A DNA stretch of 64,000 nucleotides from Acidobacteriota bacterium (GTDB taxonomy: Bacteria; Acidobacteriota; UBA890; WLXD01), in assembly GCA_965205505.1 (NCBI GenBank), contig CBDBHB010000009.1, positions 928,001 to 992,000 on the forward strand, given 5' to 3'. This document shows, one piece after another, positions 5,407 to 48,634 of the stretch (positions are counted from its first letter, which is position 1; every line of letters begins with the position of its first letter). Made by a program: the position numbers and the translations under genes. The notes below the pieces were generated by a model. The model saw nothing but the letters and a program-made list of their open reading frames with translations, was not told the origin of the DNA and did not search any database.

Positions 5407-8029
5407 ACCCAGAGCGTTGGCGACGCGTGAAGGAGCTCTTCCAACAGACCCTCGAGATGCCTGCCGGCGAGCCTGCCGCGTTCATCGAGGCCGCCTCCGC
5501 CGCCGACGAGCGATTGCGACAGGAGGTTCACACGCTGCTGTCGTCACACGATGCAGCGACCGACTTCCTGAACAATCCACCGGAGGCGGCTGCGGCCGCG
5601 GTCACCGAGTTGCATGATCGCGCCTCGCGCGTCGGAGACCGCATCGGCCCCTACAAGGTGCTCCGCCGTATCGGGCGAGGCGGTACCGGTAGCGTCTACC
5701 TCGCAGTGCGCGACGACGACGAGTTCCAACGGCGCGTCGCCATCAAGCTCGTGCGGCGCGGCATGGCGACTACCGACATCCTGCGGCGCTTCCGCAGCGA
5801 GCGTCAGATCCTCGCTAGCATCGACCACCCCTACATCGCGCGCCTGCTCGACGGTGGCTCGACCGACGACGGTGTTCCCTACTTCGTCATGGAGTACATC
5901 GAGGGCGAGCCGATCAACGTCTACTGCGACCGCAACCAGCTGTCGATCGAGGATCGCCTGACGCTTTTTTGCCAGGTGTGCTCGGCCGTCCAGGTTGCGC
6001 ACCAGAACTTGGTGGTGCATCGGGACATCAAGCCGGGGAATATCCTGGTATCGGCAGAAGGGGTTCCCAAGCTGCTCGACTTCGGGATTGCCAAGCTGCT
6101 CAACCCAGAGCTATCGGCCGCTGTCGATGACCCGACGATGCTCGAGCTACGTGTGATGACGCCAGAGTACGCTAGTCCCGAGCAGATACGCGGCGGTGCC
6201 ATCACCACCGCCAGCGACGTGTACTCCCTCGGCATCTTGCTATACGAGCTGCTTAGTGGTCGACGACCGTATCAACTAGACAACCTGCCGATGCCGGACA
6301 TGGAGTTGGTGGTTTGCACCACCCAACCCTCGCGTCCGAGTGACGCTGTATTGCAGGCGGATGTGGCGCTGCGGCTAGAGGGATCTGTGCCACGGATCAA
6401 TGCTGCGGCCGTGGCAGAGGCGCGTGGCGAGGCGCCGGAGCGGCTGCGGCGGGCGCTTGTCGGTGATCTCGACAACATCGTGCTCATGGCCCTGCGCAAG
6501 GAGCCCAACCGACGTTACTCCTCGGTCGAACACTTCGCTGACGACATTCTGCGTCATCTGAAGGGGCTGCCGGTGACGGCCCGAACCGACACGCTCCGCT
6601 ATCGTGTCGGAAAGTTCGTCGGGCGCCATCGCCTGGCAGTCGCAATGGGAATCACGACGGTCTTGTTCGGACTGGCGCTGGCGACGACGATCGTGGTGCA
6701 GGCCGGTCAGGTGGCTGTTGAGCGGGACCGTGCCCAACGGGCGGCGGAGCGCGCCACGGCGGTGAGCGATTTTCTACAAGAGATCATGGCGTCAGCCGAC
6801 CCGATCGAAGGAATGGGTCGCGACGTGACGGTGATCGAATCCGTCGAGGCGGCGGTTCCAAGGATCGGCAGCACGTTCGCCGATCAGCCCGACCTTCAAG
6901 CGGCGGTGCGCCACACGATCGGCACGACGTTCTTTCGACTAGGGCGGCTCGAAGAGGCCGAAGAGCAGCTGCGATTGGCATTGGCGATCCGGAGGGAGGT
7001 AAACGGCCCGGCGAGTCTCGACATCGCCGCCACGCTCAACAGCTTGGGTGAGGTGCTCTACGACCGCGGTGATCCTTGAAGGCCCCGAGCAACTGTTCCG
7101 TGAGGCGCTGGAGATGCGTGAGGCGCTACTTGGCCGGGAGCATGCCGACGTCGCCTGGGTACTAGACAACGTTGCCAACACCGCTCACGATCGCGGCGAC
7201 CTCGACCGGGCCGAGAGCATGTACCGCGAGGTCCTGCAGATTCGACGTCTGGTGTTGAGCCCGGAACACGAGGACATTGCATCCAGCCTCAACAACCTGG
7301 CGTCGATTCATCACGACCGTGACGAGCTCGACGACGCCGAGCGCCTCTACCGCGAGTCGCTGTCGCTGTCGAGGGCGGCCCTCGGTAGCGAGCACCCCGA
7401 CGTTGCGATCTCGCTGACCAACCTGGCGGTGCTGCTGCTCGACCACGAGCGATCGGTGGAGGCTGAGCCCCTGCTGCGCGAGGCGCTCGCCGTGAACCGC
7501 AAGCTGCTGGGCGACGCCCACCCCGGGGTGGTCAACTCGATCGAGAACCTCGCCGGCCTACTTGACGAACGCGGTGTGATCGATGAAGCGCAGGAGTTAT
7601 TCCTCGAATCCTTAGCGAATGGCGCGACAGATCTGGGGCGATCACCTCAACGTGGTGGACACGCTCGCCAGCCTCGGCTATCTGGAGCTGAGGAACGACC
7701 AGCCGGCAACCGCCGAGCCGTACTTCGTCGAGGCCTTGCAGCTGGCACGACGCGTCGTTGACGCGGACAGCCCTCTTCTGATCTGGCTCAACGCCGGCTA
7801 CGGATCCTGCCTGTTGAAGCTTGGGCGTTACGAACAGTCGGAGCGCGCTTTGCTCGAAGTACTTGCGATGGAGCAGGCGCGGACGGAGCCCGACGTTGCT
7901 CAGCTGGCTGAGGTCGCCGCCGAGTTGGTGGCGCTGTACGAGGTCTGGGGACGGGCCGACGATGCCGACGCCCACCGTAGTCTGGCGCAGGGTGCGACGC
8001 TTGACACCGTAGACGCGGGCCGCTCGTAG
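5403..8029 (+). CDS. Ser/Thr protein kinase with TM helix and C-terminal TPR repeats; two +1 frameshifts (~7075, ~7619)
   Basis: GRGGTG, VAIK, HRDIKPGN, DFG, YASPE intact; TPR repeats continue in ORFs 7048-7761 and 7619-8029 in successive frames. Confidence 0.88.
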
Positions 8030-38201: not shown

Positions 38202-38528
38202 CTAGTCGGCCAGCGGTAGGCGGTGGCGGCGCCAACGCGACATGTGGCCGCGCAGCAGGCGAACATCTACGCCACGGCGCTCGAGTAGCTCGCGCGCTAG
38301 CCAGGCGCGCGGCCCCAGCTCACAGTACGCAACGATCTCTGGCGCGTTTCTGAGTGACTCGGCAGTCGACGCCAGAAGCGCCCTCCAGAGCGGCGTACGC
38401 CGGGCTCCAGGCAGGTGGCCCCGGCGATATTCCCAACGAGATCGCACGTCGAGAATGACCGGTTCCCCTTGTCCGCCAAGGCGCTCGAGTAACTCCTCTG
38501 GGTCGATACCGGCCGGTGAATTGCGCAT
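38202..38528 (-). CDS. Rhodanese-like domain protein
   Basis: ILDVRS..EY..GHLPGA, active-site CELGPR, L.GHM..W. Confidence 0.85.
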   Translation of the reverse strand: MRNSPAGIDPEELLERLGGQGEPVILDVRSRWEYRRGHLPGARRTPLWRALLASTAESLRNAPEIVAYCELGPRAWLARELLERRGVDVRLLRGHMSRWRRHRLPLAD

Positions 38529-38655
38529 GACGATACGGTCCCGGCTGACGTGATAACTTCTGCCTCCGACCTTGGCTGGCGCCGAGTAGGAGTGCGGTCG
38601 AGGGCCCCACTATATCCGCATCTTCCGCGGCTGGGGTGGCTGGAGAAGCGAGCCG

Positions 38656-39633
38656 GTGGAGATCCTCGACGACATCCTGGGAGCGCTTGGCGACACACCA
38701 TTGGTGCGCCTGCGGCGTTTCTGGCCGCACGGTGCCGAGCTCGTCGCCAAGATCGAATCGTTCAACCCGGGATCGAGCGTCAAGGACCGCATCGGGCTGC
38801 CGTTGATCGCCGCCGGTGAAGAGTCCGGAGAGCTGCAGCCGGGCGGCACAATCGTGGAGCCGACCTCCGGGAATACCGGCCTGGGCTTGGCCATGGCCGC
38901 TATTCTCAAGGGCTACCGGATGGTCTGTACCGCGGCCGACAAGATTCCCAAGGAAAAGGTGGCGCTGCTGCAGGCCTTCGGTGTGGAGGTAATTCTCTGC
39001 CCTACCGAGGTCGAGGCGGACGATCCGCGCTCCTACTACAAGGTCGCCGAGCGACTGCGCGACGACGAAGGCGCTTATCTTCCCTACCAGTATTACAACC
39101 AAGCGAACCCGCAGGCGCACTACCTCACTACTGGCCCGGAAATCTGGCGTCAGACCGAGGGGCGCATCACCCACTGGGTCACTGGAATGGGGACCGGCGG
39201 CACGATCAGCGGCACCGCCAAGTACTTGAAGGAGCAGAACCCCGATGTTCGGGTCGTCGGCGTCGACACGGTGGGCTCGATTTACGCCTACTACAAAGAA
39301 CATGGAAAGACGCCACCGCAGGAGCAGATCCACCAGTACCTGATCGACGGAATCGGTGAGGACTTCATGCCCGAAACTGTGTGGTGGGACTACATCGACG
39401 AGGTGATCACGGTGGATGATCCGGCGGCCTATCGCGCCGTCCTCGAGTTGGCCCGCAGCGAGGCCATCTTCACCGGTTCGTCAGGGGCGGCGGCGGTTGT
39501 CGGGGCGCGCCGCGTCGCACGCAGCGCCGCGGATGATGCGCTGGTGGTGACCCTGCTTCCCGACTCCGGTGAGCGTTACCTGTCGAAGCTCAACGAGACG
39601 TGGATGCGCGAGCACGGGCTGCTGGACGACTGA
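38656..39633 (+). CDS. PLP-dependent cysteine synthase / cystathionine beta-synthase family protein
   Basis: NPGSSVKDR (PLP Lys), PTSGNTG, GMGTGGT, PDSGERYLS. Confidence 0.92.
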   Translation: MEILDDILGALGDTPLVRLRRFWPHGAELVAKIESFNPGSSVKDRIGLPLIAAGEESGELQPGGTIVEPTSGNTGLGLAMAAILKGYRMVCTAADKIPKEKVALLQAFGVEVILCPTEVEADDPRSYYKVAERLRDDEGAYLPYQYYNQANPQAHYLTTGPEIWRQTEGRITHWVTGMGTGGTISGTAKYLKEQNPDVRVVGVDTVGSIYAYYKEHGKTPPQEQIHQYLIDGIGEDFMPETVWWDYIDEVITVDDPAAYRAVLELARSEAIFTGSSGAAAVVGARRVARSAADDALVVTLLPDSGERYLSKLNETWMREHGLLDD

Positions 39634-39676
39634 GCCGCCTTGCGTTTGACCCGGACTTGCCGTAACCAGGCCGGCG

Positions 39677-39699
39677 ACACTTCTACCACGGCCTGTTAG
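39677..39699 (-). repeat. Solo IS/MITE-like terminal sequence
   Basis: acacttctaccacggcctgttag, 20/23 identical to 29851-29873. Confidence 0.55.
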
Positions 39700-39710
39700 G
39701 AAAGGTGCTC

Positions 39711-41003
39711 ATGCCGAGCGGCTTCAGTGGGAGCCTGGCAGCGACCCTATTCGCCGGAGGCGTGCCTGCGGCGCTGGTCTTCGTTGCGTTGCTCACGCTA
39801 CGCTGCCGCTATCCGCTGATGCGGGCACTCGGGCTGCCGTCATCCCTGCTCGCCTTTGCGCTCGGCGTCGCCGTTGCCAACGTGTTGGGCCTTGGCGACA
39901 TGGACCGGGGAGGCGGCGTGCTGGTGGCAACTGTCTGGTTCTTCGTCATCGTGGTGGTGATTCGCGGCGCCACCTACTTCGGCTACGAGGTTCTGCTCAA
40001 GCGTCAATGGGACATCGAGGTGCCGCCGCTGTTGCCGCGCGTCACCCGTTTCTTCATCTACGCCGTATCGGGTGTGATGATCGTTTCGGTGGCGTTTCCT
40101 AATGACAATCTCGGGCCGTTGCTTGCTACCAGCGCGGTTACATCGTTGGTGTTGGGTCTTGCGCTGCAACCGATCCTGACGAACTTCTTCGCCGGTGTGG
40201 TGATCGCGCTCGAACGTCCCTTCCGTATCAACGACTGGATTCAGGTTGGCCCGCATGAGGGGCGGGTAACGCAGATCACCTGGCGGACGACCTCGATCCG
40301 TACGCGCCAGAACGATACGGTTATTTTCCCCAACGCCAACATGGCGCGGGAGACCCTCACCAACTACCTGTATCCGCACCCGCTGCACATGTCGAGAATC
40401 TATGTCGGGGCGCATTTCTCGACGCCGCCACACAAGGTCAAGGCGACGATGCTCGCAGCCGCCAACCAGGTCGAAGGGGTGTTGGATCGGCCGAGCGCCG
40501 AAGTCTACCTATCCAAATTCGACGAAAGCTCGATCACCTACGAGCTACGCGCCTGGGTCGACGACATGGGCCCATTGCGGCGCATCGAAAGCGCGCTACG
40601 CACCCAAATTTGGGAGCAGTTCCGGCGCAACGATATCGTCATCCCGTTCCCGATCCGCACGCTCGAGATCGCGCCGCGGGGTAGCGCGACGCGTGAGCCG
40701 CGCACGCCGCCGCCAGCCAGACTGGTGGTAAGCGAGGGGCCTGGTCGCGGCGACGCGCTCGAGCTTGCCGACGGCGAGGTCGTGGTCGGCCGCGACCCTG
40801 AGTGTGACCTGGTCATATCGGACCCCGCAGCCAGCAAGAGACACTTGAGCATCGTGTGGGAAGATGAGGCGTTCCACGTTCGAGACCTCGATAGCACCCA
40901 CGGCACCCGGCTCAACGGTGAGCCTGTGGACACCGCCCCGTTGAGTGATTTCGACAAGCTGCAGATCGGCGCAGCAACGCTAGTGATCGAGATCGATGAC
41001 TGA
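39711..41003 (+). CDS. MscS family mechanosensitive channel fused to C-terminal FHA domain
   Basis: GLALQPILTNFFAG, ERPFRINDWI, ITWRTT, IPFPIR (MscS); VGRDPECDL..ASKRH..DLDSTHGT.LNG (FHA). Confidence 0.88.
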   Translation: MPSGFSGSLAATLFAGGVPAALVFVALLTLRCRYPLMRALGLPSSLLAFALGVAVANVLGLGDMDRGGGVLVATVWFFVIVVVIRGATYFGYEVLLKRQWDIEVPPLLPRVTRFFIYAVSGVMIVSVAFPNDNLGPLLATSAVTSLVLGLALQPILTNFFAGVVIALERPFRINDWIQVGPHEGRVTQITWRTTSIRTRQNDTVIFPNANMARETLTNYLYPHPLHMSRIYVGAHFSTPPHKVKATMLAAANQVEGVLDRPSAEVYLSKFDESSITYELRAWVDDMGPLRRIESALRTQIWEQFRRNDIVIPFPIRTLEIAPRGSATREPRTPPPARLVVSEGPGRGDALELADGEVVVGRDPECDLVISDPAASKRHLSIVWEDEAFHVRDLDSTHGTRLNGEPVDTAPLSDFDKLQIGAATLVIEIDD

Positions 41004-41913
41004 GCTACCCGAGCAGATTGGTGACTATCGCGTCGAGGCGCGGCTGGACAAAGCCGGGCACAACGGGGTCTACAAAGCGGTCGGCGCGGGTACGCAGGCG
41101 TTGGCCATCAAGCTGTATCCCACCGGGGAGTCCGATGTCCTGCGCGCTCGACGCCTGGAGATCCTGGCGGCCACGAGCGAGCTCGATCAAGAGAACGTCG
41201 CGCGCGTGCTCGACAGCGGCGAGCACGAGGGCCGCGTGTACGCGGTGATGGAATTCGTTCAGGGGTCATCGCTCCGCAAGGTATTGACGCACCGTCGGCT
41301 CGATACGCGCGACGTCATCGAGGTGCTGCGCGGCACCGCCAAAGCACTCGGTCATGCGTACGGCAAAGGCCTGCCTTGCGAGGGCGTCGATTCGGACCGC
41401 ATCCTCGTCCGTGGTGATGGGCACACTGTGAAGGTCATCGACGTCGGCATGCCGATGGTACCGATGGGCATGGATTCGGGCTCTACGGCGACGCTGCATT
41501 CGCTCGGCGCGGTGCGCTACCTGGCGCCCGAGCGTATGGCCCGCCCCGACGATGCCCCGAGCCAAGGCGCGCTGGTGTATTCGTTAGGCGTCGTCGGTTA
41601 CGAGCTGTTGACGGGAACCCTGCCGGTGGGCGGCTTCCGGATTCCGAGCCAGGTGCGCGGCGAGGTGCCGCCGGAGATCGATCCGCTGATTCTTCGGTGT
41701 CTCGCCGAGGACCCGCAGGAGCGCTTCGCCGACCCGCGCGCCCTGGTTGCGGCGCTGGACGATCTCGTATCGCGTGTGCCCGCGCTACAGGCAAGGATCG
41801 GCGATGGAGCTGCTGCACGCGTGCAAGCCACCGCGCGGAACCGCAAGGTACTCTTTGCCGGCGGCGTTGTCGCCGCGTTGGCGATCCTGGTGCTGGCGAT
41901 GCGGGGTTGCTGA
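40996..41913 (+). CDS. Ser/Thr kinase-like protein, probable pseudokinase, with C-terminal membrane anchor
   Basis: LAIK, VMEFV.G, YLAPE, YSLG present; HRDxKxxN replaced by CEGVDSDR; DFG is DVG. Confidence 0.82.
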   Translation: MTELPEQIGDYRVEARLDKAGHNGVYKAVGAGTQALAIKLYPTGESDVLRARRLEILAATSELDQENVARVLDSGEHEGRVYAVMEFVQGSSLRKVLTHRRLDTRDVIEVLRGTAKALGHAYGKGLPCEGVDSDRILVRGDGHTVKVIDVGMPMVPMGMDSGSTATLHSLGAVRYLAPERMARPDDAPSQGALVYSLGVVGYELLTGTLPVGGFRIPSQVRGEVPPEIDPLILRCLAEDPQERFADPRALVAALDDLVSRVPALQARIGDGAAARVQATARNRKVLFAGGVVAALAILVLAMRGC

Positions 41914-41948
41914 TCCGGCGACGTTGAGCCTGTGAGAGAGCCCTCGGC

Positions 41949-44900
41949 TCAGCCCGCGGCGGGATCTCGACGGCCGACGACCACGTCCGCACTCTGCTCG
42001 CCGAGATCGGCCTCGCGACGGTTCCACCAGTTGCTCAACCGCTCCGGGAGTTGCTGAGCGTCGTCGACGATCATGTAGCTGCACGGCACCAGGGCGAGGA
42101 TGACGAAGGTGGCGAAGAGCACGCCGAACGCTAGTGATACGGCCATCGGGATCAGGAACTGAGCTTGCAAGCTCTTCTCCAGGATCATCGGCAACAGCCC
42201 TGCGAAGGTCGTGACCGAGGTCAAAAGGATGGGCCTGAACCGCGCTCGTCCGGCCTCGAGCACCGCGCTCCGAACATTCTCGGTGGTCTCGAGTAGCCGA
42301 TTGACGTAGTCAACCAGGATCAAGCTGTCGTTGACCACCACACCGGCGAGGGCCACGACGCCGAACATCGACAGGATTGTCAGGTCGAGGCCCATGATGA
42401 TGTGGCCCCACACCGCGCCCACGAGGCCGAACGGGATGGCGGACATGATGATCAGGGGCTGCACGTAGGAGCGCAGCGGGATTGCCAGCAGTCCGAAGAT
42501 GGCGATGAGCGCCAGCGAGAAGCCGCGTACCAAGCCTCCCGTGGTTTCACGCTGTTGTGCGGCTTGGCCTTCGAACGAGAAACGGACATCGGGGATCGCA
42601 GCGGCGATCTGCGGCAGCACCGTATCGGCCAAGTCGGCGTTGATGTTTCCCGGGGTAGCGACGGCGCGGTTTACCGATGCGGTAACGCTCACCGCCCGAC
42701 TTCGATCCACCCGTTCGATGGTCGAGTAACCACGACCCGGCTCGACCGTCGCCACCTGGGCGAACGGCACCTCCGCGCCACCCGGCGTGCCGATTCGCAT
42801 CGCCTCGAGATCGCCGATGGAGCGCCGTTGTCGCTCCGGGTACCGCACCATCACTCGCACGTCGTCCCGGCCTCGTTGGATACGCTGGGCCTCCTCGCCG
42901 TAGAACGCCTGTCGCACTTGGCGGCCGAGGTCGGACAGGGTCAGACCGAGGACCTCGGCTTGCGGCTTGATGTCGAGCTTTAGCTCGCGCTTGCCTTCCA
43001 GGAACGTATCGCTGATCCCGTAAACCCCGTCGTAGCCCTCGAGACGATCCTTGAGCATGTCCGCAGCAGCGGTGAGCGTGTCGAGATCGCGGCCGGTGAA
43101 CTGAACGTCGATGTCGTCTCCGGCCGAGAACAACGAGGCCGTGACGTTGACTCGCACGGCGTCAGGGATCGTCCCGGTCAGATCACGCCAGCGGTTCGCG
43201 ACCCACTCGCTGGAGACCGCATTGCGGCTCTCAGCGGGGGTGAGCTCCACGGTCACCTCGGCAAGGTGGGTCGTCGAGCCGCCAATCTCCAAGTCGCCGA
43301 ACCCTGAGCGCTGGGCTGCTTGCATGGGCTGGGCCCCGATCGCCGCGAACGTATGCACGAAGACGTCGACGCCGAACTCGTCGATGATCTCCTGCCGCAG
43401 GCGCTCGGAGCTGTCCTCGATGTGCCGTACGGTCAACGAGGTGACCTCCGCTGGCGTGCCCTGCGGCATCGTCAGCGACACGATGACGAAGTCGGCTTCG
43501 ATATCAGGCATGAAGATGAACCGCACGAAGCCTGCGTTGACCAGGCCCAGGGTAACGAGCAATGTCGCTACACCGACCGCGACGGTGAGATAGCGCCAGC
43601 GCAAGCCGATCTGCAAGGCGGGTTCGTAGACGCTGTCGATGAACCAGTGCAACCCGGCCGTGATCTTGCGCTGGAGCCGGAACCACAGACCGCGCTCGTT
43701 AGCCGTGTGGCGCCGTCGATACGACAGGTGCGTCGGCAGGACAAACAGGGATTCCACCAATGAGAACGCCAAGCACGCGATCACGATGAGCGGCGCGGTG
43801 GACATGATCTTGCCGATCACGCCGGGCACGCCAAGCAGCGGGGCGAACGCAGCCATGCTGGTGAGAATGGCGAAAACTACTGGCTTCGACACCTCGCGGG
43901 CACCCTCGATCGCGGCGCGCAGCGGATCGTCGTGCCGTTCCTGGTGCGTGTAGATGTTCTCGCCCACCACGATGGCGTCGTCGACGACCATGCCGAGTAC
44001 CAGGATGAAGGCGAATAGCGACATCAGGTTCACCGAGACATCCATCGCCGGCATCAACCAGATCGCACCGAGGAAGCTGACCGGGATGCCCAGGCTCACC
44101 CAGAACGCCAACCGCAAGCGCAGGAACAGAGCGAGAGACAGGAACACGAGTGCGAACCCGACGCGTCCGTTTCGAAGCAGCATGTCGAGGCGATCTCGCA
44201 GCACCCGCGACTGATCCTGCCAGGTGGTCAGCGTGATTCCCTCCGGCACCCAGAGGCGCGCGCTCTCGACGTAAGACTTTCACGAGCATCGCCGGTTTGC
44301 CATCGAAGCGTGAGATCTGGTCGGTGTCGGCGAAGGCGTCCACCACGGTGGCGACATCGCCTAGCTGCAGGTGGGTTCCATCCGGCCGCGTCAGCAGCAC
44401 CAGCCTGGTGAACTGATCCCCCGTATATGCCTGGCCCATCGTGCGCAGCAGGATCTCGCCGCCGGCGGTCTTGACCGAGCCCCCGGGCAGGTCGATCGAA
44501 GAGCGTCGCACCGCGTTGGCGATGAAGTCGAAGGTGATGCCGTGCCGGCGCAGGGAATCTTCGGAGACTTCGATCGTCACCTCGTAGGGGCGCGCGTTGG
44601 CAACCTCCACCTGAGTGATCTCGGGCAACGCTGCAATCTCGTCGCGCACGCGTTCGGCCAGGTGCTTGAGCGAGAGCTCGTCGGTGTCGCCGAAGATCGC
44701 CACGTCGACCACCTGCCGACGGTTCGTGAGCTCGCGAATAATCGGCTTCTCGGTTTCCTGTGGGAAGGTCTCGATGGCATCGACGCTGGTCTTGATATCG
44801 TCGAGAACCTTGCGCGCGTCGGCGTCGATCTCGAGCTCGATCATGACCGTGCCGATGCCCTCGGCGGCCGTGGAGGTCAGCTTCTTGATGCCGTCGACGC

Positions 44901-45120
44901 CCTGGACCGCCTCCTCGATGCGTACGTTGACTCCCTGTTCGACCTCTTCGGGTGCGGCCCCCAGATACGGCACGGTTACCTGGATGAGGTCGAGGGCGAA
45001 CTCGGGGAACACCTCCTGCGGGACATTGCTGACGGTCATCAGACCCGCGCCGAGCACGAACGCCATGAGCAGGTTGGCAGCGACGCGATTGCGAGCGAAC
45101 CAGCCGATCGCGCCGTTCAT
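41949..45120 (-). CDS. RND (AcrB/AcrD/AcrF) efflux permease, interrupted near 44275
   Basis: N-part 45120-~44275 and C-part in another frame; GMVVDDAIVVGEN, RFRPILLTS; may be a pseudogene or an assembly error. Confidence 0.88.
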
Positions 45121-46207
45121 CGGCCTAGCTGGCCGGCGCCCGTCTGTTCGGTGGCCCGCGAATCGACACGCACCACCATGCCGTCGGTCACCGCATCCAA
45201 CGCCGACAGCACCACCTGCTCGCCAGCATGCAGCCCGGATCGAACCACGAGAGTGTCACGCGTGGCACGCAGGATCTTGATTTCGCGGAAGCGCAGGCGC
45301 TGTTGCTCATCGACGACGAGCACGCGGCCGTCAACACGCACCGCTGCGCGAGGTAGCAGCACGACATCGCTGGCGATCGCACCCTCGATCTCGGCATGCA
45401 CGTACATGCCCACCGCGAGCGGCGGGCGCTGTGGATCAGCGCCGCGCCCGTACGGATTCCGCACCTGGGCAACGGCATGGACCATGCGGCTCGATGGGTC
45501 GATCTCGCCTTCCGTTCGTACCAGGCGCCCCTGCCACTCGTGTGTCTGGCCGGCGAACTCGGCGCGCACCGTCACGCGCGGCCCGGCGCGCTGAGACTCC
45601 CCTCGATATACCAGTGGCAGCTCCGCCAGGAAGGCGAGCTCGCCGTCGGGCAACGGTAGCCGGATCTCGGCGAAGTCGATAGCGTAGATCGATCCCACGG
45701 CTGTCCCGGCGGCAACGAACTGGCCGACGTCGACTGTCTTTTCGCGCACGCGGCCGGCGTAAGGCGCGCGTAGCTCTGTGCGTTCGAGGTTGCGTTCCGC
45801 TTGCCCCAGGTTGGCTTCGGCCGCCGCTAACGCGGCGCGGGCATTCTCCAGCTGCGGCACGTGGGCGGTCAATGCCGACGCGGTGCCGTTGCCCAGCTGT
45901 TGCCATTCGCGCACCGCGATCTCGGCCTCTGCCTGCGCTTGCGCCTGGCGCAGCCCGGAGGCTGCAACCTCGGCGCGAGCGCGAATGCGAGCTTGCTCGT
46001 AGTCGTGCGCATCGATGCGCAACAGCGGCGCGCCGGCCTCGAAAAAGCCGCCGGATACGAAATCAGGCGATACCCATACCACTTGTCCAGAGACCTCGGG
46101 CACAACGCGGCTCTCGGTCCGCGGGCGCACGCGGCCGCCGCCCCGGCGATGGCGAGCACGAGGATCGGCAGTGTGATCTTCAGCACGGTGGCGACCTTGC
46201 GGCTCAT
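45117..46207 (-). CDS. RND periplasmic adaptor (MFP), frameshifted/deleted near 46132
   Basis: TM leader MSRKVATVLKITLPILVLAIAG in one frame; VRPRTE..EVSGQV, LRAPYAG in another. Confidence 0.85.
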
Positions 46208-46209
46208 CG

Positions 46210-46488
46210 CTAGTGTCCTGTAACAGAGGTTCGTTGCATATTGCTGGGTCGAGATGGGGGCAAGCTCAAGGCGCGATGAGGATGGCGATGCGGTGCCCAT
46301 CGTCGACGAATCGCAACGCTGAGATTGCCCCCATATCGACCCAGCCCTCCGGGTGGCCGCGGGACTGGCCACCTCCGGCGTCGGCCCTCCTCTGCGATAC
46401 CCTCAGCATCGCCGTCGTCGAGCCTCCTTGGTTTCGACTCAGTCGCGCGCGCCACAATATGCAACGAACCTCTGTTACAGGACATTAG
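46210..46488. mobile_element. MITE-like element 3 (perfect 30-bp TIR, ctag/ttag flanks, two internal hairpin modules)
   Basis: tgtcctgtaacagaggttcgttgcatattg 46214-46243 and its exact reverse complement 46455-46484. Confidence 0.9.
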
Positions 46489-47942
46489 CTCTCCGAAGGG
46501 AACTCGGTCGAGGTGGTTGTGGTCTCGGCATAGCCGCGGTCGACGTGGAATCCACCGCCCAGTGCCAGGTACAGATCAACACGGTTGTCGAGGCGCTGGC
46601 GGCGCGCGGCGAGCAACGCGCTCTCGGCGTCGAAGGTGCGGCGTTGCGCCTCGAGCACGGGGACATAGCCTTCCAGACCGTTTCGGTAGCGCTCGTTGGC
46701 GAGACGCTCGGCGGCGCCGGATTGCTCCGACGCAACTTCTAGCTGGCCCACCTGGTCGGCTAGCAGCGTCTCCGCTGCGAGCGTGGATTCGACCTCGGCA
46801 TAGGCGAGCAGCGCTGTACCCACATAGGCGGCGGCAGCCTCGTCGATGCCGGCCTGTGCCACATCGACTCCAGCGCGCAGCCGGCCGCCCTGGAGCAGTG
46901 GCGCCACGAGGTTGCCAACCAGGCTCCATACCGAAAAATCACCCTGCACCAATTTACCCAGCTGGTTGGTCGATGTCCCACCGGACGCAGTCAGGCTCAG
47001 TCGCGGATACAGCGCAGCGCGTGCTCCGAGGAGCCGCTGGTCAGCTACTACGAGCCGGCGCTCGGCGGCAGCCAGGTCGGGCCTGCGCGCAACCAGATCC
47101 GCCGGCAGCCCAGACGGCACCTGGGCAGGCGCGTCGATGAGCGCTGCCGGGAACTCGAACTCGCCGCCGGGATAGATCCCGAGCAGCACTTGGAGCTGGC
47201 GGCCGGTAGCGTCCAGTTGCTGGTGCCGAGCCAGCAACGTGGCGCCGGCGCCGGCGGCCTGCGCCATCGCCAGCCGTAGATCAAGCGGCGGGCGAACGCC
47301 GCGTTCGAACCGCGCGCGTACCTGTTCGACCGAGCGTGTGAAGCTGAGTACGGTACGCGTTGCGAGATCGACCTGCTGTTGGGCCTCGGCCACCGCGAAC
47401 CAGGCCTTGGCGGTCTGTGCGGCGATCGAGAGTAGAGCGCCAGCGTAGTCGGCTTCGCTAGCCTGGTAGGTGGCGAGGCCCTCCCGGGCCTGGGCGCCGA
47501 GGCGGCCCCAGAGGTCGACCTCCCACGACAGGTCGAGCGACACCCCGTAGTTGGTCGATGTGGTGCTGAGAACGCGGTTGTCGCTGCCGGGAATCGGGAA
47601 GCCGACGAAGTTCTGCTTGCGGCGCGTAGCCAGGGCGCTGGCTCCGAGCTGCGGGCGCAGATCAGCGTCGGCGATTCGCGCGGTGGCCTCGGCGCCCGCC
47701 ATGCGTGCGGCAGCGGCGAGGACATCGGTGTTGTGCTGAAGCGATCGTTCCACCGCCGCCGTCAGGCCGCGTTCGCTAAAGTCCAACCACCAGCTGGCAC
47801 TGACGTCGATGGGCTCAGCAGGCGCCCGGTCGCCGAACGCCGCGGGCAACGGGAGAGCCGTCGTTGGCTTGGCGGCGTTGGGGGTGGAGACGCAGCCGAC
47901 GCCAGCGAGGAGGACGACAGCGGCGCTGGCGGCTCGATTCAT
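46485..47942 (-). CDS. Outer membrane efflux lipoprotein (NodT/OprM/TolC family)
   Basis: GVGC lipobox, SWEVDLWGR, RRPDLAAAE, LYLALGGG. Confidence 0.92.
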   Translation of the reverse strand: MNRAASAAVVLLAGVGCVSTPNAAKPTTALPLPAAFGDRAPAEPIDVSASWWLDFSERGLTAAVERSLQHNTDVLAAAARMAGAEATARIADADLRPQLGASALATRRKQNFVGFPIPGSDNRVLSTTSTNYGVSLDLSWEVDLWGRLGAQAREGLATYQASEADYAGALLSIAAQTAKAWFAVAEAQQQVDLATRTVLSFTRSVEQVRARFERGVRPPLDLRLAMAQAAGAGATLLARHQQLDATGRQLQVLLGIYPGGEFEFPAALIDAPAQVPSGLPADLVARRPDLAAAERRLVVADQRLLGARAALYPRLSLTASGGTSTNQLGKLVQGDFSVWSLVGNLVAPLLQGGRLRAGVDVAQAGIDEAAAAYVGTALLAYAEVESTLAAETLLADQVGQLEVASEQSGAAERLANERYRNGLEGYVPVLEAQRRTFDAESALLAARRQRLDNRVDLYLALGGGFHVDRGYAETTTTSTEFPSES

Positions 47943-48634
47943 CGGGAAGGTGCCTTCGCCGCCGCCGCGGCGCCATCGAGCGTTCCGAGGGGCACTTCGG
48001 AGTCCGCTGGCGCGCGCATTCCGGCAGCGGCGAACGCGACCAGCGAGTGGAGCACCTCGTCGGTCTGCGGCTCCGCCGTCGAACAGAGGCTGGGGATGTG
48101 TTGGCACCAGCAGAAGGTGTGCGCCAGTGAGCCAATGCAGTAGTGCATGCGGCGCGTGATCTCGTAGGAGCTCACCGTGGGCAACACGCGCGCGAGGGCG
48201 TCATGGAAGCGCTCGCGAACGGTCTCGAACTGCTGCAGGAAGAGCTCGTGGATCGAGTGGGTGGGGTCGGCATAGACGCGGCTGACTACTCGCATGTAGC
48301 GCTCGCCGGCGCCGCCCGACTCGTGGCGCATGTGGAACGGCGGCTCCAACCAGGCCCAAAGGATCTGCTCCAACGACACCGGGCGCTCGCCGCCTTCGGC
48401 CTCGAACCCTGAGAGCATCTCTAGTCGGCGGTCGTTCATGGGTCGGAATCGGCGCTCGAACACTGCCGCTAGCAACGAGTCCTTGCTGCCGAAGTGATAG
48501 TTGACGGAGGCCAGGTTGGCGTTGGCCAGGGCGGTGACGTCGCGTAGCGATGTCGCGGTAATGCCCTTGTCACCGAACAGTTGCTCCGCTGCGTCAATCA
48601 GGCGGTCCTTCGTGGTCGTCGCGTTCGTGGTCAT
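47939..48634 (-). CDS. TetR/AcrR family regulator (PsrA-like)
   Basis: TKDRLIDAAEQLF, NLASVNYHFGSK HTH. Confidence 0.92.
   Translation of the reverse strand: MTTNATTTKDRLIDAAEQLFGDKGITATSLRDVTALANANLASVNYHFGSKDSLLAAVFERRFRPMNDRRLEMLSGFEAEGGERPVSLEQILWAWLEPPFHMRHESGGAGERYMRVVSRVYADPTHSIHELFLQQFETVRERFHDALARVLPTVSSYEITRRMHYCIGSLAHTFCWCQHIPSLCSTAEPQTDEVLHSLVAFAAAGMRAPADSEVPLGTLDGAAAAAKAPSR

Follow-up and report, generated by a model that had tools for sequence, protein, structure and literature searches.

Two adjacent genes on the forward strand of the window (the whole 64,000-nucleotide stretch analysed here; all coordinates refer to this strand) encode an MscS-like channel fused to an FHA domain and a kinase-like partner. 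The channel gene (39711..41003) specifies 430 aa from the ATG at 39711. The frame is also open from a GTG at 39705, and residues of the channel protein are counted from that codon. The ATG is the likelier start, because a Shine-Dalgarno-like sequence read from the DNA, AGGAAAGG (39698..39705), lies 5 nt upstream of it and close homologues are 430 aa long. A hydropathy scan detected five hydrophobic stretches in the protein, with peaks at residues 11-29, 46-64, 71-89, 113-131 and 136-169. The first four make up the N-terminal segments (residues ~9-131; 39729..40097), the last two of which align to TM1 and TM2 of MscS, and the fifth corresponds to the pore-lining TM3 (residues 136-169; 40110..40211), with the pore motif GLALQ at residues 151-155. 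L148, L152, Q155, P156, N160 and G164 are invariant in 79 of 79 relatives. We take L148 and L152 to be the counterparts of the E. coli MscS gate residues L105 and L109, and the Pro after Q155 presumably occupies the position of a kink Gly in E. coli MscS. The cytoplasmic cage (40173..40643) consists of a beta domain (residues 157-221; Pfam MS_channel_2nd, PF00924, E=1.4e-20, 73.6 bits against a cut-off of 20.2) and an alpha/beta domain (residues 232-313; MS_channel_3rd, PF21082, E=4.7e-10, 40.2 bits, cut-off 21). A phmmer search of the PDB aligned residues 78-317 to residues 37-272 of E. coli MscS (e.g. 2vv5; 57-292 in the longer 2oau chain) and matched MscK, MscS, MscM and YnaI at E values of 4e-20 to 1e-12. 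By its beta and alpha/beta domains and its TM3, the protein is, at the level of sequence, a member of the MscS family; it is presumably heptameric, and it may be mechanosensitive.

The cage is followed in frame by a Pro/Arg-rich linker (residues 323-341; 40671..40727) and a C-terminal FHA domain (residues ~342-430; 40728..40994). The linker, IAPRGSATREPRTPPPARL, has 5 Pro among its 19 residues, together with 2 Thr and 1 Ser; in relatives it spans 15-30 aa and has no conserved Thr. Residues 359-422 match the Pfam FHA model (PF00498, E=1.6e-17, 64.1 bits, cut-off 20.7), residues 333-427 align to the FHA domains of GarA, Rv0020c and OdhI in the PDB, and NCBIfam assigns the protein both to MscK/MscS and to the FhaB/OdhI-type FHA proteins. 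The Pfam model Yop-YscD_cpl (PF16697) also matches the FHA region (E=1.1e-16). These two models, MS_channel_2nd and MS_channel_3rd were the only Pfam matches at E up to 0.01, so that no cNMP_binding domain was found in the channel; an ABC domain was likewise absent, by Pfam, from the proteins of the locus. In characterised FHA domains the phosphate is held by the Arg of a GR motif and the Ser of an SxxH motif. The domain encoded here matches the profile and keeps both motifs (GR at 362-363, SKRH at 377-380), followed by S397-T-H399-G-T401 and N404, with HG at 399-400 in place of the canonical NG. Among the 79 relatives, G362, R363, H380, S397, G400, T401 and N404 are conserved in all and S377 in 75, while residue 399, the canonical Asn of S-x-N-G, is variable (F 33, H 23, K 7, N 6, Y 4, V 3). 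Since this Asn is both replaced and variable, peptide recognition may be atypical or phospho-independent. Domain profiles, PDB alignment, hydropathy and the 79 relatives thus agree with the initial annotation, which had described a complete MscS core with extra N-terminal transmembrane segments, GLALQ and cage, continuing through a Pro-rich linker into an FHA domain that keeps GR and SxxH and has HG for NG.

The stop of the channel gene had also been described as overlapping the start of a kinase-fold gene, and it does so over 8 nt, ATGACTGA (40996..41003), an arrangement that points to translational coupling. On the evidence of Pfam, NCBIfam and an alignment to StkP, the second gene (40996..41913) encodes a tail-anchored Hanks-type pseudokinase of 305 aa. 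It matches Pkinase (PF00069, E=6.2e-17, 62.3 bits, cut-off 31.7) and the NCBIfam PknB-type kinase model. The alignment to StkP places C128-E129-G130 at the HRD triplet, D132 at the catalytic-loop Lys and R135 at the Asn, and the family columns likewise mark the loop C128-E-G-V-D-S-D-R135 (41377..41400) as degenerate relative to the canonical HRDLKPxN. The VAIK Lys is kept as K39 and DFG reads D149-V-G, so that the protein retains the ATP-site Lys and the DxG Asp, along with an activation segment (D149-V-G to A-P-E179; 41440..41532) that includes the APE motif and activation-loop threonines in the motif S-T164-A-T166-L. Of the catalytic residues checked for an active kinase, only K39 and D149 survive. 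Deprived of the Asp of HRD and of both Lys and Asn of the catalytic loop, the partner in this genome cannot catalyse phosphotransfer. Its single hydrophobic segment (residues 284-302; 41845..41901), with 3 residues after it, is the predicted C-terminal membrane anchor.

The initial description of the partner as a pseudokinase holds for the window and for most relatives; it does not extend to the 11 of 75 partners that keep all four catalytic residues (K39, HRD Asp, Asn and DFG Asp). The HRD triplet varies among the 75 partners (HRS 16, HRD 13, HHH 7, CEG 2), and the Pro and Glu of APE are present in every one. Among 35 partners, all of which have the C-terminal hydrophobic tail, conservation of T164 and T166 is 90% or more. 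FHA domains prefer an aliphatic residue at pT+3, and 57 of 75 activation segments contain T-x-T-[LIVM], which places an aliphatic residue there. Many long forms of the partner carry periplasmic TPR repeats, a sensor that the short forms have lost. A quick tree requires at least 3 changes of partner state, with a root that rests on two long outgroup branches. The partner in the window is the most divergent member of the family (terminal branch of 1.17); four residues of the S-T-G-E stretch conserved in the family are missing from it, as is the conserved motif L-E-E-x-L-R-L-R in the juxtamembrane region. As a separate observation, residue 399 of the FHA domain is Asn in 4 of 11 channels with active-like partners and in 2 of 63 with degenerate ones, a distribution confounded by shared ancestry.

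A chimeric assembly, which could have created the fusion artificially, was considered and rejected, since the fusion recurs both in contigs from other studies (four in number) and in homologues. Runs X4 and X6 each contain a single contig that covers positions 39600-42000 and differs there by 6-7 substitutions without any indel, and contigs of runs X5 and X9 extend across the point where MscS joins FHA as well as across the overlap of the two genes. None of the 24 runs listed was of RNA. The MscS+FHA architecture is found in 116 of the 120 best database matches listed. At E<=1e-3, 1825 proteins were retrieved among 8000 candidates scored, a total that includes MscS relatives of unseen architecture, and 229 relatives were identified in species genomes.

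We then asked what lies beside the channel gene in 80 Acidobacteriota loci. In 77 of them, including a locus (L080) in Thermoanaerobaculum, the channel gene is followed directly by a kinase-like gene in the same orientation; in the other three (L009, L011 and L055) the contig ends no more than 108 nt past the channel match or inside it. The two genes overlap by 4-20 nt in most relatives, and the ATGACTGA overlap itself is kept in a relative with an intact pair (G072). Clustering of neighbours with a GC3 filter, across the 80 loci and the window, revealed no universal neighbour besides the partner, and no active kinase or phosphatase as a conserved neighbour. The commonest other neighbours were DinB_2 (35), aldo-keto reductase (22) and GGDEF-EAL (20), none of which occurs in the window. 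A scan of 38400-42300 returned no promoter-like sites, by a sigma-70 consensus that may not apply in this phylum, and one terminator-like site, which falls within a coding region and within the expectation from shuffled sequence. The conserved gene order supports the view that channel and partner form one system, and the pair is best interpreted as a membrane module of two translationally coupled genes that is confined to a subset of Acidobacteriota.

The partnership proposed by the initial annotation accordingly stands for the family as far as neighbour conservation goes, but not as a strict dependence. In three of five genomes related at the genus level, a truncation or a nonsense mutation disrupts the partner, and four of the five have an intact channel gene, indicating that the channel can persist without its partner. 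The partners of L001 and L003 break off at an identical position of the activation loop, and the missing C-lobe was not found elsewhere in either genome. L002 has nonsense codons in both genes, and the channel gene of G156 has a frame break. These lesions, together with the CEG that replaces HRD in the window's partner, the most degenerate of its family, suggest that the module could be a decaying remnant in the genus, and that the window's copy is functionless and merely still unbroken. We regard this as very unlikely. Comparison of the window with G072, the other genome in which the pair is intact, yields a dN/dS of 0.133 (channel) and 0.146 (partner) at a dS of 0.84-1.0; against L002 the values are 0.121 and 0.192. 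We conclude that both genes are under purifying selection. Retention of the start/stop overlap in G072, the indel-free recurrence of the window's sequence in contigs from four other studies and the intactness of all FHA and pore residues also argue against decay.

We consider it plausible, with a chance of about one half, that phospho-dependent docking of the FHA domain on the partner changes the gating or localisation of the channel, or that channel conformation controls access to the partner as a scaffold. The C-terminal strand of the channel would run through the flexible Pro/Arg-rich linker into the FHA domain, and because the linker joins cage to FHA, a ring of phosphothreonine readers would hang below the cytoplasmic cage. 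The kinase-fold partner would be anchored C-terminally in the same membrane. One of the roughly 35 other Hanks kinases of the genome could phosphorylate Thr164 or Thr166 of the partner in trans; in relatives with intact catalytic residues, the partner might phosphorylate itself. FHA domains of the channel would then dock on the partner phosphothreonine, and occupancy of the FHA ring would alter gating or localisation; conversely, the conformation of the channel might govern access to the partner scaffold. The genome has 38 Pkinase matches (35 over the cut-off) and 2 PP2C_2 matches; its FHA proteins number only 3 and its MscS paralogues 4. Prediction of a complex between the FHA domain (residues 330-432) and the partner kinase domain (residues 1-270) gave scores of 0.00 and 0.12 against a mark of 0.32, and was counted for neither side.

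If the FHA domain instead bound the partner constitutively, the partner would be a fixed subunit serving assembly, localisation or nucleotide sensing, and there would be no phospho-switch. The variability of the canonical Asn of S-x-N-G (Asn in 6 of 79, most often Phe or His) is consistent with such binding, as is the match to PF16697, the model of the phospho-independent T3SS YscD FHA-like domain; moreover, 64 of 75 partners are catalytically dead yet remain under purifying selection, and neither a phosphatase nor an active kinase is conserved nearby. We nevertheless think constitutive binding unlikely, since the phosphate-holding Arg of GR is invariant, the Ser of SxxH is nearly so and His380, Ser397, Thr401 and Asn404 are found in 79 of 79, and since conservation of the activation-loop threonines to at least 90% even in dead partners is hard to explain without phosphorylation. 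A different reading has the FHA ring recognise phosphothreonines of the channel itself or of other proteins, while the partner has a separate role; active partners, for instance, would serve as the kinase, or the partner would allosterically activate some other kinase whose targets are the channel or its clients. GarA and OdhI, whose FHA domains bind their own phosphorylated N-terminus, are the nearest solved FHA relatives and would be models for such self-inhibition; the linker of the window offers 2 Thr and 1 Ser as possible sites, the genome has 3 FHA proteins for ~35 kinases, and the linker of Rv1747 is phosphorylated by its cognate kinase, according to the accessible part of PMC8339232. 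GarA-like self-inhibition through a conserved linker Thr was rejected family-wide, however, as many relatives have linkers entirely free of Thr (e.g. L006, L009, L012, L021, L023 and L024), and a kinase role is ruled out for the 64 dead partners. Recognition of other targets, or of the channel itself, seems to us decidedly improbable.

In a further reading, the MscS-like heptamer would be the sensory input of a Hanks-type pathway rather than mainly an osmotic safety valve, and channel and dead kinase together would make up a bacterial mechanotransduction receptor. Tension would reshape the cage, exposing or hiding a ring of seven FHA domains; the phosphorylated pseudokinase, which has no sensor of its own, would in turn be bound by the ring or set free, and a downstream phospho-relay would be switched. 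The loss of the TPR sensor from short partners fits with the channel having taken over sensing. We offer this as a speculative extension that is probably not correct.

Parts of this arrangement resemble known systems. E. coli MscS and its paralogues MscK, MscM and YnaI share TM1-TM3 and the beta and alpha/beta cage, GLALQ and the flanking Leu residues being invariant in the family studied here; unlike E. coli MscS, the channel described here has two further hydrophobic segments at its N-terminus, ends in an FHA domain and is encoded beside an obligate kinase-like neighbour. bCNG channels also carry a regulatory ligand-binding domain on the C-terminus of an MscS core, and comparative anatomy supports the view that the FHA domain sits where they have a cNMP-binding domain. 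The appended domain is FHA instead of cNMP-binding, the ligand is presumably not a small molecule but a phosphoprotein encoded by the adjacent gene, and the hosts are Acidobacteriota, whereas bCNG channels occur mostly in cyanobacteria. As far as the accessible text of a 2026 review of bacterial MscS-like channels reports, bCNG channels gave E. coli no protection against downshock, suggesting specialised roles, and the review nowhere mentions kinase, phosphorylation, FHA or forkhead (PMC13591265).

In Mycobacterium tuberculosis, the ABC transporter Rv1747, which has two FHA domains, shares an operon with PknF, and the kinase positively regulates the transporter, according to the portions available of PMC3138270 and PMC3908365. 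Both systems pair an FHA-bearing membrane transporter with a membrane Hanks-type kinase fold in a two-gene operon, as the 8-nt overlap and the 77 of 80 loci indicate for the genes described here. Rv1747 is an ABC exporter and not an MscS channel, and the FHA domain here is single and C-terminal. Compared with PknF, the partner is catalytically dead, tail-anchored and without an extracytoplasmic part, and this locus has no active kinase phosphorylating the linker, which lacks a conserved Thr. The mycobacterial MviN pseudokinase is phosphorylated by PknB and then recruits the FHA domain of FhaA, as stated in the accessible sections of a review that make no mention of Acidobacteria, MscS or mechanosensitive channels (PMC12599244). 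This pair also combines a membrane-protein-linked bacterial pseudokinase with an FHA domain, in the reverse arrangement: in mycobacteria one chain holds both the pseudokinase and the transporter, a MurJ-like flippase, and the FHA protein stands apart, whereas the channel described here carries the FHA domain and the pseudokinase is a protein of its own. The available part of the literature on FHA domains with mechanosensitive or MscS channels yielded no description of the fusion or of the module.

The gene pair is conserved and has hundreds of members, and a channel equipped to read phosphothreonine makes it a testable case. To our knowledge, phosphorylation control of bacterial mechanosensitive channels is essentially unexplored. 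The cognate kinase has repeatedly lost catalysis yet stays under selection, and with it the bacterial pseudokinases gain a family that had not been listed. Beside Rv1747/PknF and MviN/FhaA, the module would be the third example of an FHA domain, a transporter and a kinase acting together, and the first for an ion channel. In soil Acidobacteriota, membrane tension may be coupled to protein phosphorylation through this uncharacterised gene pair.

The channel gene is a single open frame on the forward strand, running to 41003 from either a GTG at 39705 (432 codons) or an ATG at 39711 (430 codons). The ATG is the likelier start, since AGGAAAGG lies 5 nt upstream of it and a length of 430 aa is shared by the nearest homologues in the database; we count residues from the GTG. 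Pfam domains in the protein are MS_channel_2nd (residues 157–221, 1.4e-20), MS_channel_3rd (232–313, 4.7e-10) and FHA (359–422, 1.6e-17). NCBIfam gave partial matches to MscK, MscM and MscS and, for the FHA part, to FhaB/FipA- and OdhI-type FHA proteins. Among solved structures, the top channel matches were MscK (3.8e-20) and an MscS (6.9e-20); residues 37–272 of E. coli MscS align with channel residues 78–317, and channel residues 333–427 align with the FHA domains of GarA, Rv0020c, OdhI and Rv1747. A hydropathy scan detected five hydrophobic stretches, two more than in E. coli MscS. The last cage strand (IVIPFPIRTLEI) is followed by a 19-residue linker containing 5 Pro, and then by the FHA domain.

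We compared the region 39600–42000 with contigs from four sequencing runs of four other studies. Single contigs from two runs (X4 and X6) cover the whole region with 6–7 substitutions, contigs from the other two (X5 and X9) run across both the joint between MscS and FHA and the overlap of the two genes, and no indels were seen in this region in contigs of the four runs. In a collection of 5.8 billion proteins, PF00924 and PF00498 occur together in 116 of the best 120 matches, the remaining 4 being shorter proteins (267–408 aa), and one large cluster of the ESM Atlas shows the channel-FHA architecture (62 members; commonest phylum Acidobacteriota). The fusion described in the initial annotation is thus present both in independent assemblies and in relatives, and is not the artefact of a chimeric assembly. 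The overlap of its stop with the start of a kinase-fold gene was likewise confirmed, as ATGACTGA at 40996–41003. Separately, a 57-nt contig from X5 (depth 6) joins 41141 to 41204, with 62 nt of the partner gene missing; it could come from a deletion variant present at low frequency or be a fragment created in assembly.

The partner gene (40996–41913, forward strand) encodes 305 aa with Pkinase (6.2e-17) and PknB-type kinase matches. Aligned with StkP, it has C128-E129-G130 in place of the HRD triplet, D132 for the catalytic-loop Lys, R135 for the Asn and D149-V-G for DFG, and it retains K39 and APE. No other full-length Pkinase match in its genome scores lower: this one reaches 60 bits, the rest 90–189. 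Since its sole hydrophobic segment (residues 284–302) ends 3 residues before the C-terminus, the protein is predicted to be a tail-anchored cytoplasmic pseudokinase without an extracytoplasmic domain.

To follow the pair in relatives, we searched one genome per species, which gave 229 relatives, and analysed the best 80 loci. All 80 come from MAGs of Acidobacteriota that bear the label Thermoanaerobaculia, Holophagales/Holophagae or 'Multivoradales'. In 77 of these loci, the next gene downstream is a relative of the partner in the same orientation. The other three contigs end too early, 108 nt past the channel match (L009, L011) or inside it (L055), so every informative locus has the pair. Spacing is mostly a 4–20 nt overlap or a gap of <40 nt. 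After neighbouring genes were filtered by GC3 against shadow ORFs and clustered, no universal third family was found around the pair. DinB_2 is divergently upstream in 35 loci, a GGDEF-EAL gene is downstream in 20 (for example L050:7531-9594 and L078:4270-4884), and aldo-keto reductase and acyl-CoA dehydrogenase genes are nearby in 22 and 17; all four are absent from the window. Part of the family may possibly be linked to c-di-GMP signalling. In the window, the upstream neighbours encode a DUF3179 protein and a cysteine-synthase-like, PLP-dependent enzyme; downstream, an RND efflux operon runs convergently. Its AcrB-type pump gene (41949–45120, reverse strand) is split in two frames near 44250–44262, the upstream piece matching ACR_tran profile positions 4–286 and the downstream ORF 310–1020, which may reflect a misassembly, a frameshift or a short deletion; the membrane-fusion (45117–46130) and outer-membrane (46485–48107) genes look whole.

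Catalytic residues were counted in 75 partners of at least 240 aa, namely the window's and those of 74 loci (L001, L003 and L048 were too short). The full set of K39, HRD Asp, Asn and DFG Asp survives in only 11; the HRD triplet reads HRS in 16, HRD in 13, HHH in 7, HRN in 5 and CEG in 2, among others. The Pro and Glu of APE are present in all 75. The activation segment contains T-x-T-[LIVM] in 57, and G-T-[LI]-S-T is mostly retained by the other 18. When 35 partners were aligned more cleanly, conservation of T164 and T166 reached at least 90%, and every one of these proteins has the C-terminal hydrophobic tail. Ten partners are 550–800 aa long (L013, L031, L043, L045, L051, L060, L061, L066, L071 and L074), and all eight of these that were scanned carry TPR repeats C-terminal to the kinase domain. 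Several long partners retain every catalytic residue, and the long form may be an ancestral sensor kinase. In a quick maximum-likelihood tree of 72 partner kinase domains (L002, L030 and L040 excluded), whose root is unsure because it rests on the two long branches of unrelated outgroup kinases, two early-branching groups account for six active-like partners and for the majority of long forms with TPR repeats. Five more active-like partners form a second clade nested within the large degenerate one, and catalytic state requires at least 3 changes. The window's partner has the longest ingroup branch (1.17), beside L004 and L005 (SH-aLRT 97). We infer that the ancestral partner was probably an active TPR-sensor kinase, with catalysis and sensor lost repeatedly.

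Among 201 genomes spread evenly over the phylum, 7 gave matches spanning channel and FHA. Four of the 7 belong to the window's genus; the rest are G085, G014, which has two copies, and G156, where the frame is broken. A further 134 matched genomes had the MscS core only, and the fusion was absent from the three unpublished genomes in the sample (G052, G027 and G155). In G156 (L087, G156:C5:851000-860000) the channel match is spread over two frames and a stop falls near residue 144–148, and in L030 the match ends at residue 328 while the frame continues; errors in long reads or additional broken frames may explain these cases.

Module decay is one alternative to a working system, and the window's genus bears on it. 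In five genomes, the channel gene shares 82% identity or more with that of the window. In the window and G072 both genes are intact, with the ATGACTGA overlap kept and CEG in both partners; between them, the channel has a dN/dS of 0.133 and the partner one of 0.146 (dS 0.84–1.0). In two non-sister genomes, similarity to the window's partner stops at the same nucleotide of the activation loop, after G-S-T (L001:6292-6882, L003:6292-6798), followed in L001 by unrelated GC-rich DNA and in L003 by AT-rich sequence resembling the terminus of an inserted element. A search of the rest of these genomes found no close copy of the partner C-lobe (best match 38% identical). A third locus (L002:5001-7215) has one in-frame stop per gene: the FHA domain is interrupted by a TAG, and codon 41 of the partner is a stop. 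The channel gene is thus broken in one of five lineages, versus loss of the partner in three. The dN/dS values and the broken partners together indicate a pseudokinase maintained by selection over most of the genus history, yet dispensable enough for loss in 3 of 5 lineages.

Our analysis demonstrates the anatomy, pairing, residue conservation and selection of the module. Of the phospho-gated mechanosensitive system proposed in the initial annotation, the module and its dead kinase are real, as judged from pairing, conservation and lost catalytic residues; the signalling part is a model, the best supported, in which every biochemical step is one that we infer. The channel's C-terminal FHA ring would dock on a phosphothreonine in the partner's activation loop. 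An active partner would phosphorylate itself, and a dead one, such as that of this genome, would be phosphorylated in trans; binding would modulate channel gating or placement. Alternatively, the FHA domain might bind independently of phosphorylation, or read other phosphoproteins. Across 79 channel-FHA sequences, FHA residues G362, R363, H380, S397, G400, T401 and N404 are invariant, as are pore-helix residues L148, L152, Q155, P156, N160 and G164, and S377 is kept in 75. Position 399, Asn in canonical FHA domains and His in the window's protein, is variable (F 33, H 23, K 7, N 6, Y 4, V 3). Arg and Pro are abundant in the linker, which is 15–30 residues long and contains no conserved Thr in these sequences. 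In the genome of the window (5.98 Mb, 96% complete), Pkinase gave 38 matches, of which 35 exceed the cut-off, and PP2C_2 gave 2; 4 genes belong to the MscS family and only 3 encode an FHA domain. Hence, trans-phosphorylation of the partner is possible, and the channel FHA would be one of very few phosphothreonine readers. A second Hanks-type kinase domain in the window (~5652–6281, forward strand, G000:C9:933652-934281; 157.6 bits, 602-aa open frame) does not lie close to the module.

In full-text searches, which covered papers readable without a subscription but not database annotation pages, we found no paper on an MscS-FHA fusion. The combination is also absent from two reviews: one of 2026 on MscS (PMC13591265) does not mention FHA, forkhead, phosphoryl or kinase, and one of 2025 on bacterial pseudokinases (PMC12599244) does not mention Acidobacteri, mechanosensitive or MscS. 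bCNG channels carry a cNMP-binding domain, rather than FHA, on the same end of the MscS core, and gave E. coli no downshock protection (PMC13591265); the pseudokinase MviN is phosphorylated by PknB, upon which the FHA domain of FhaA is recruited (PMC12599244). The FHA-bearing transporter Rv1747 shares one operon with its kinase PknF (PMC3138270, PMC3908365). The module combines two known arrangements, the addition of a regulatory domain to an MscS channel and the FHA-transporter-kinase operon, and is directly testable through heterologous expression.
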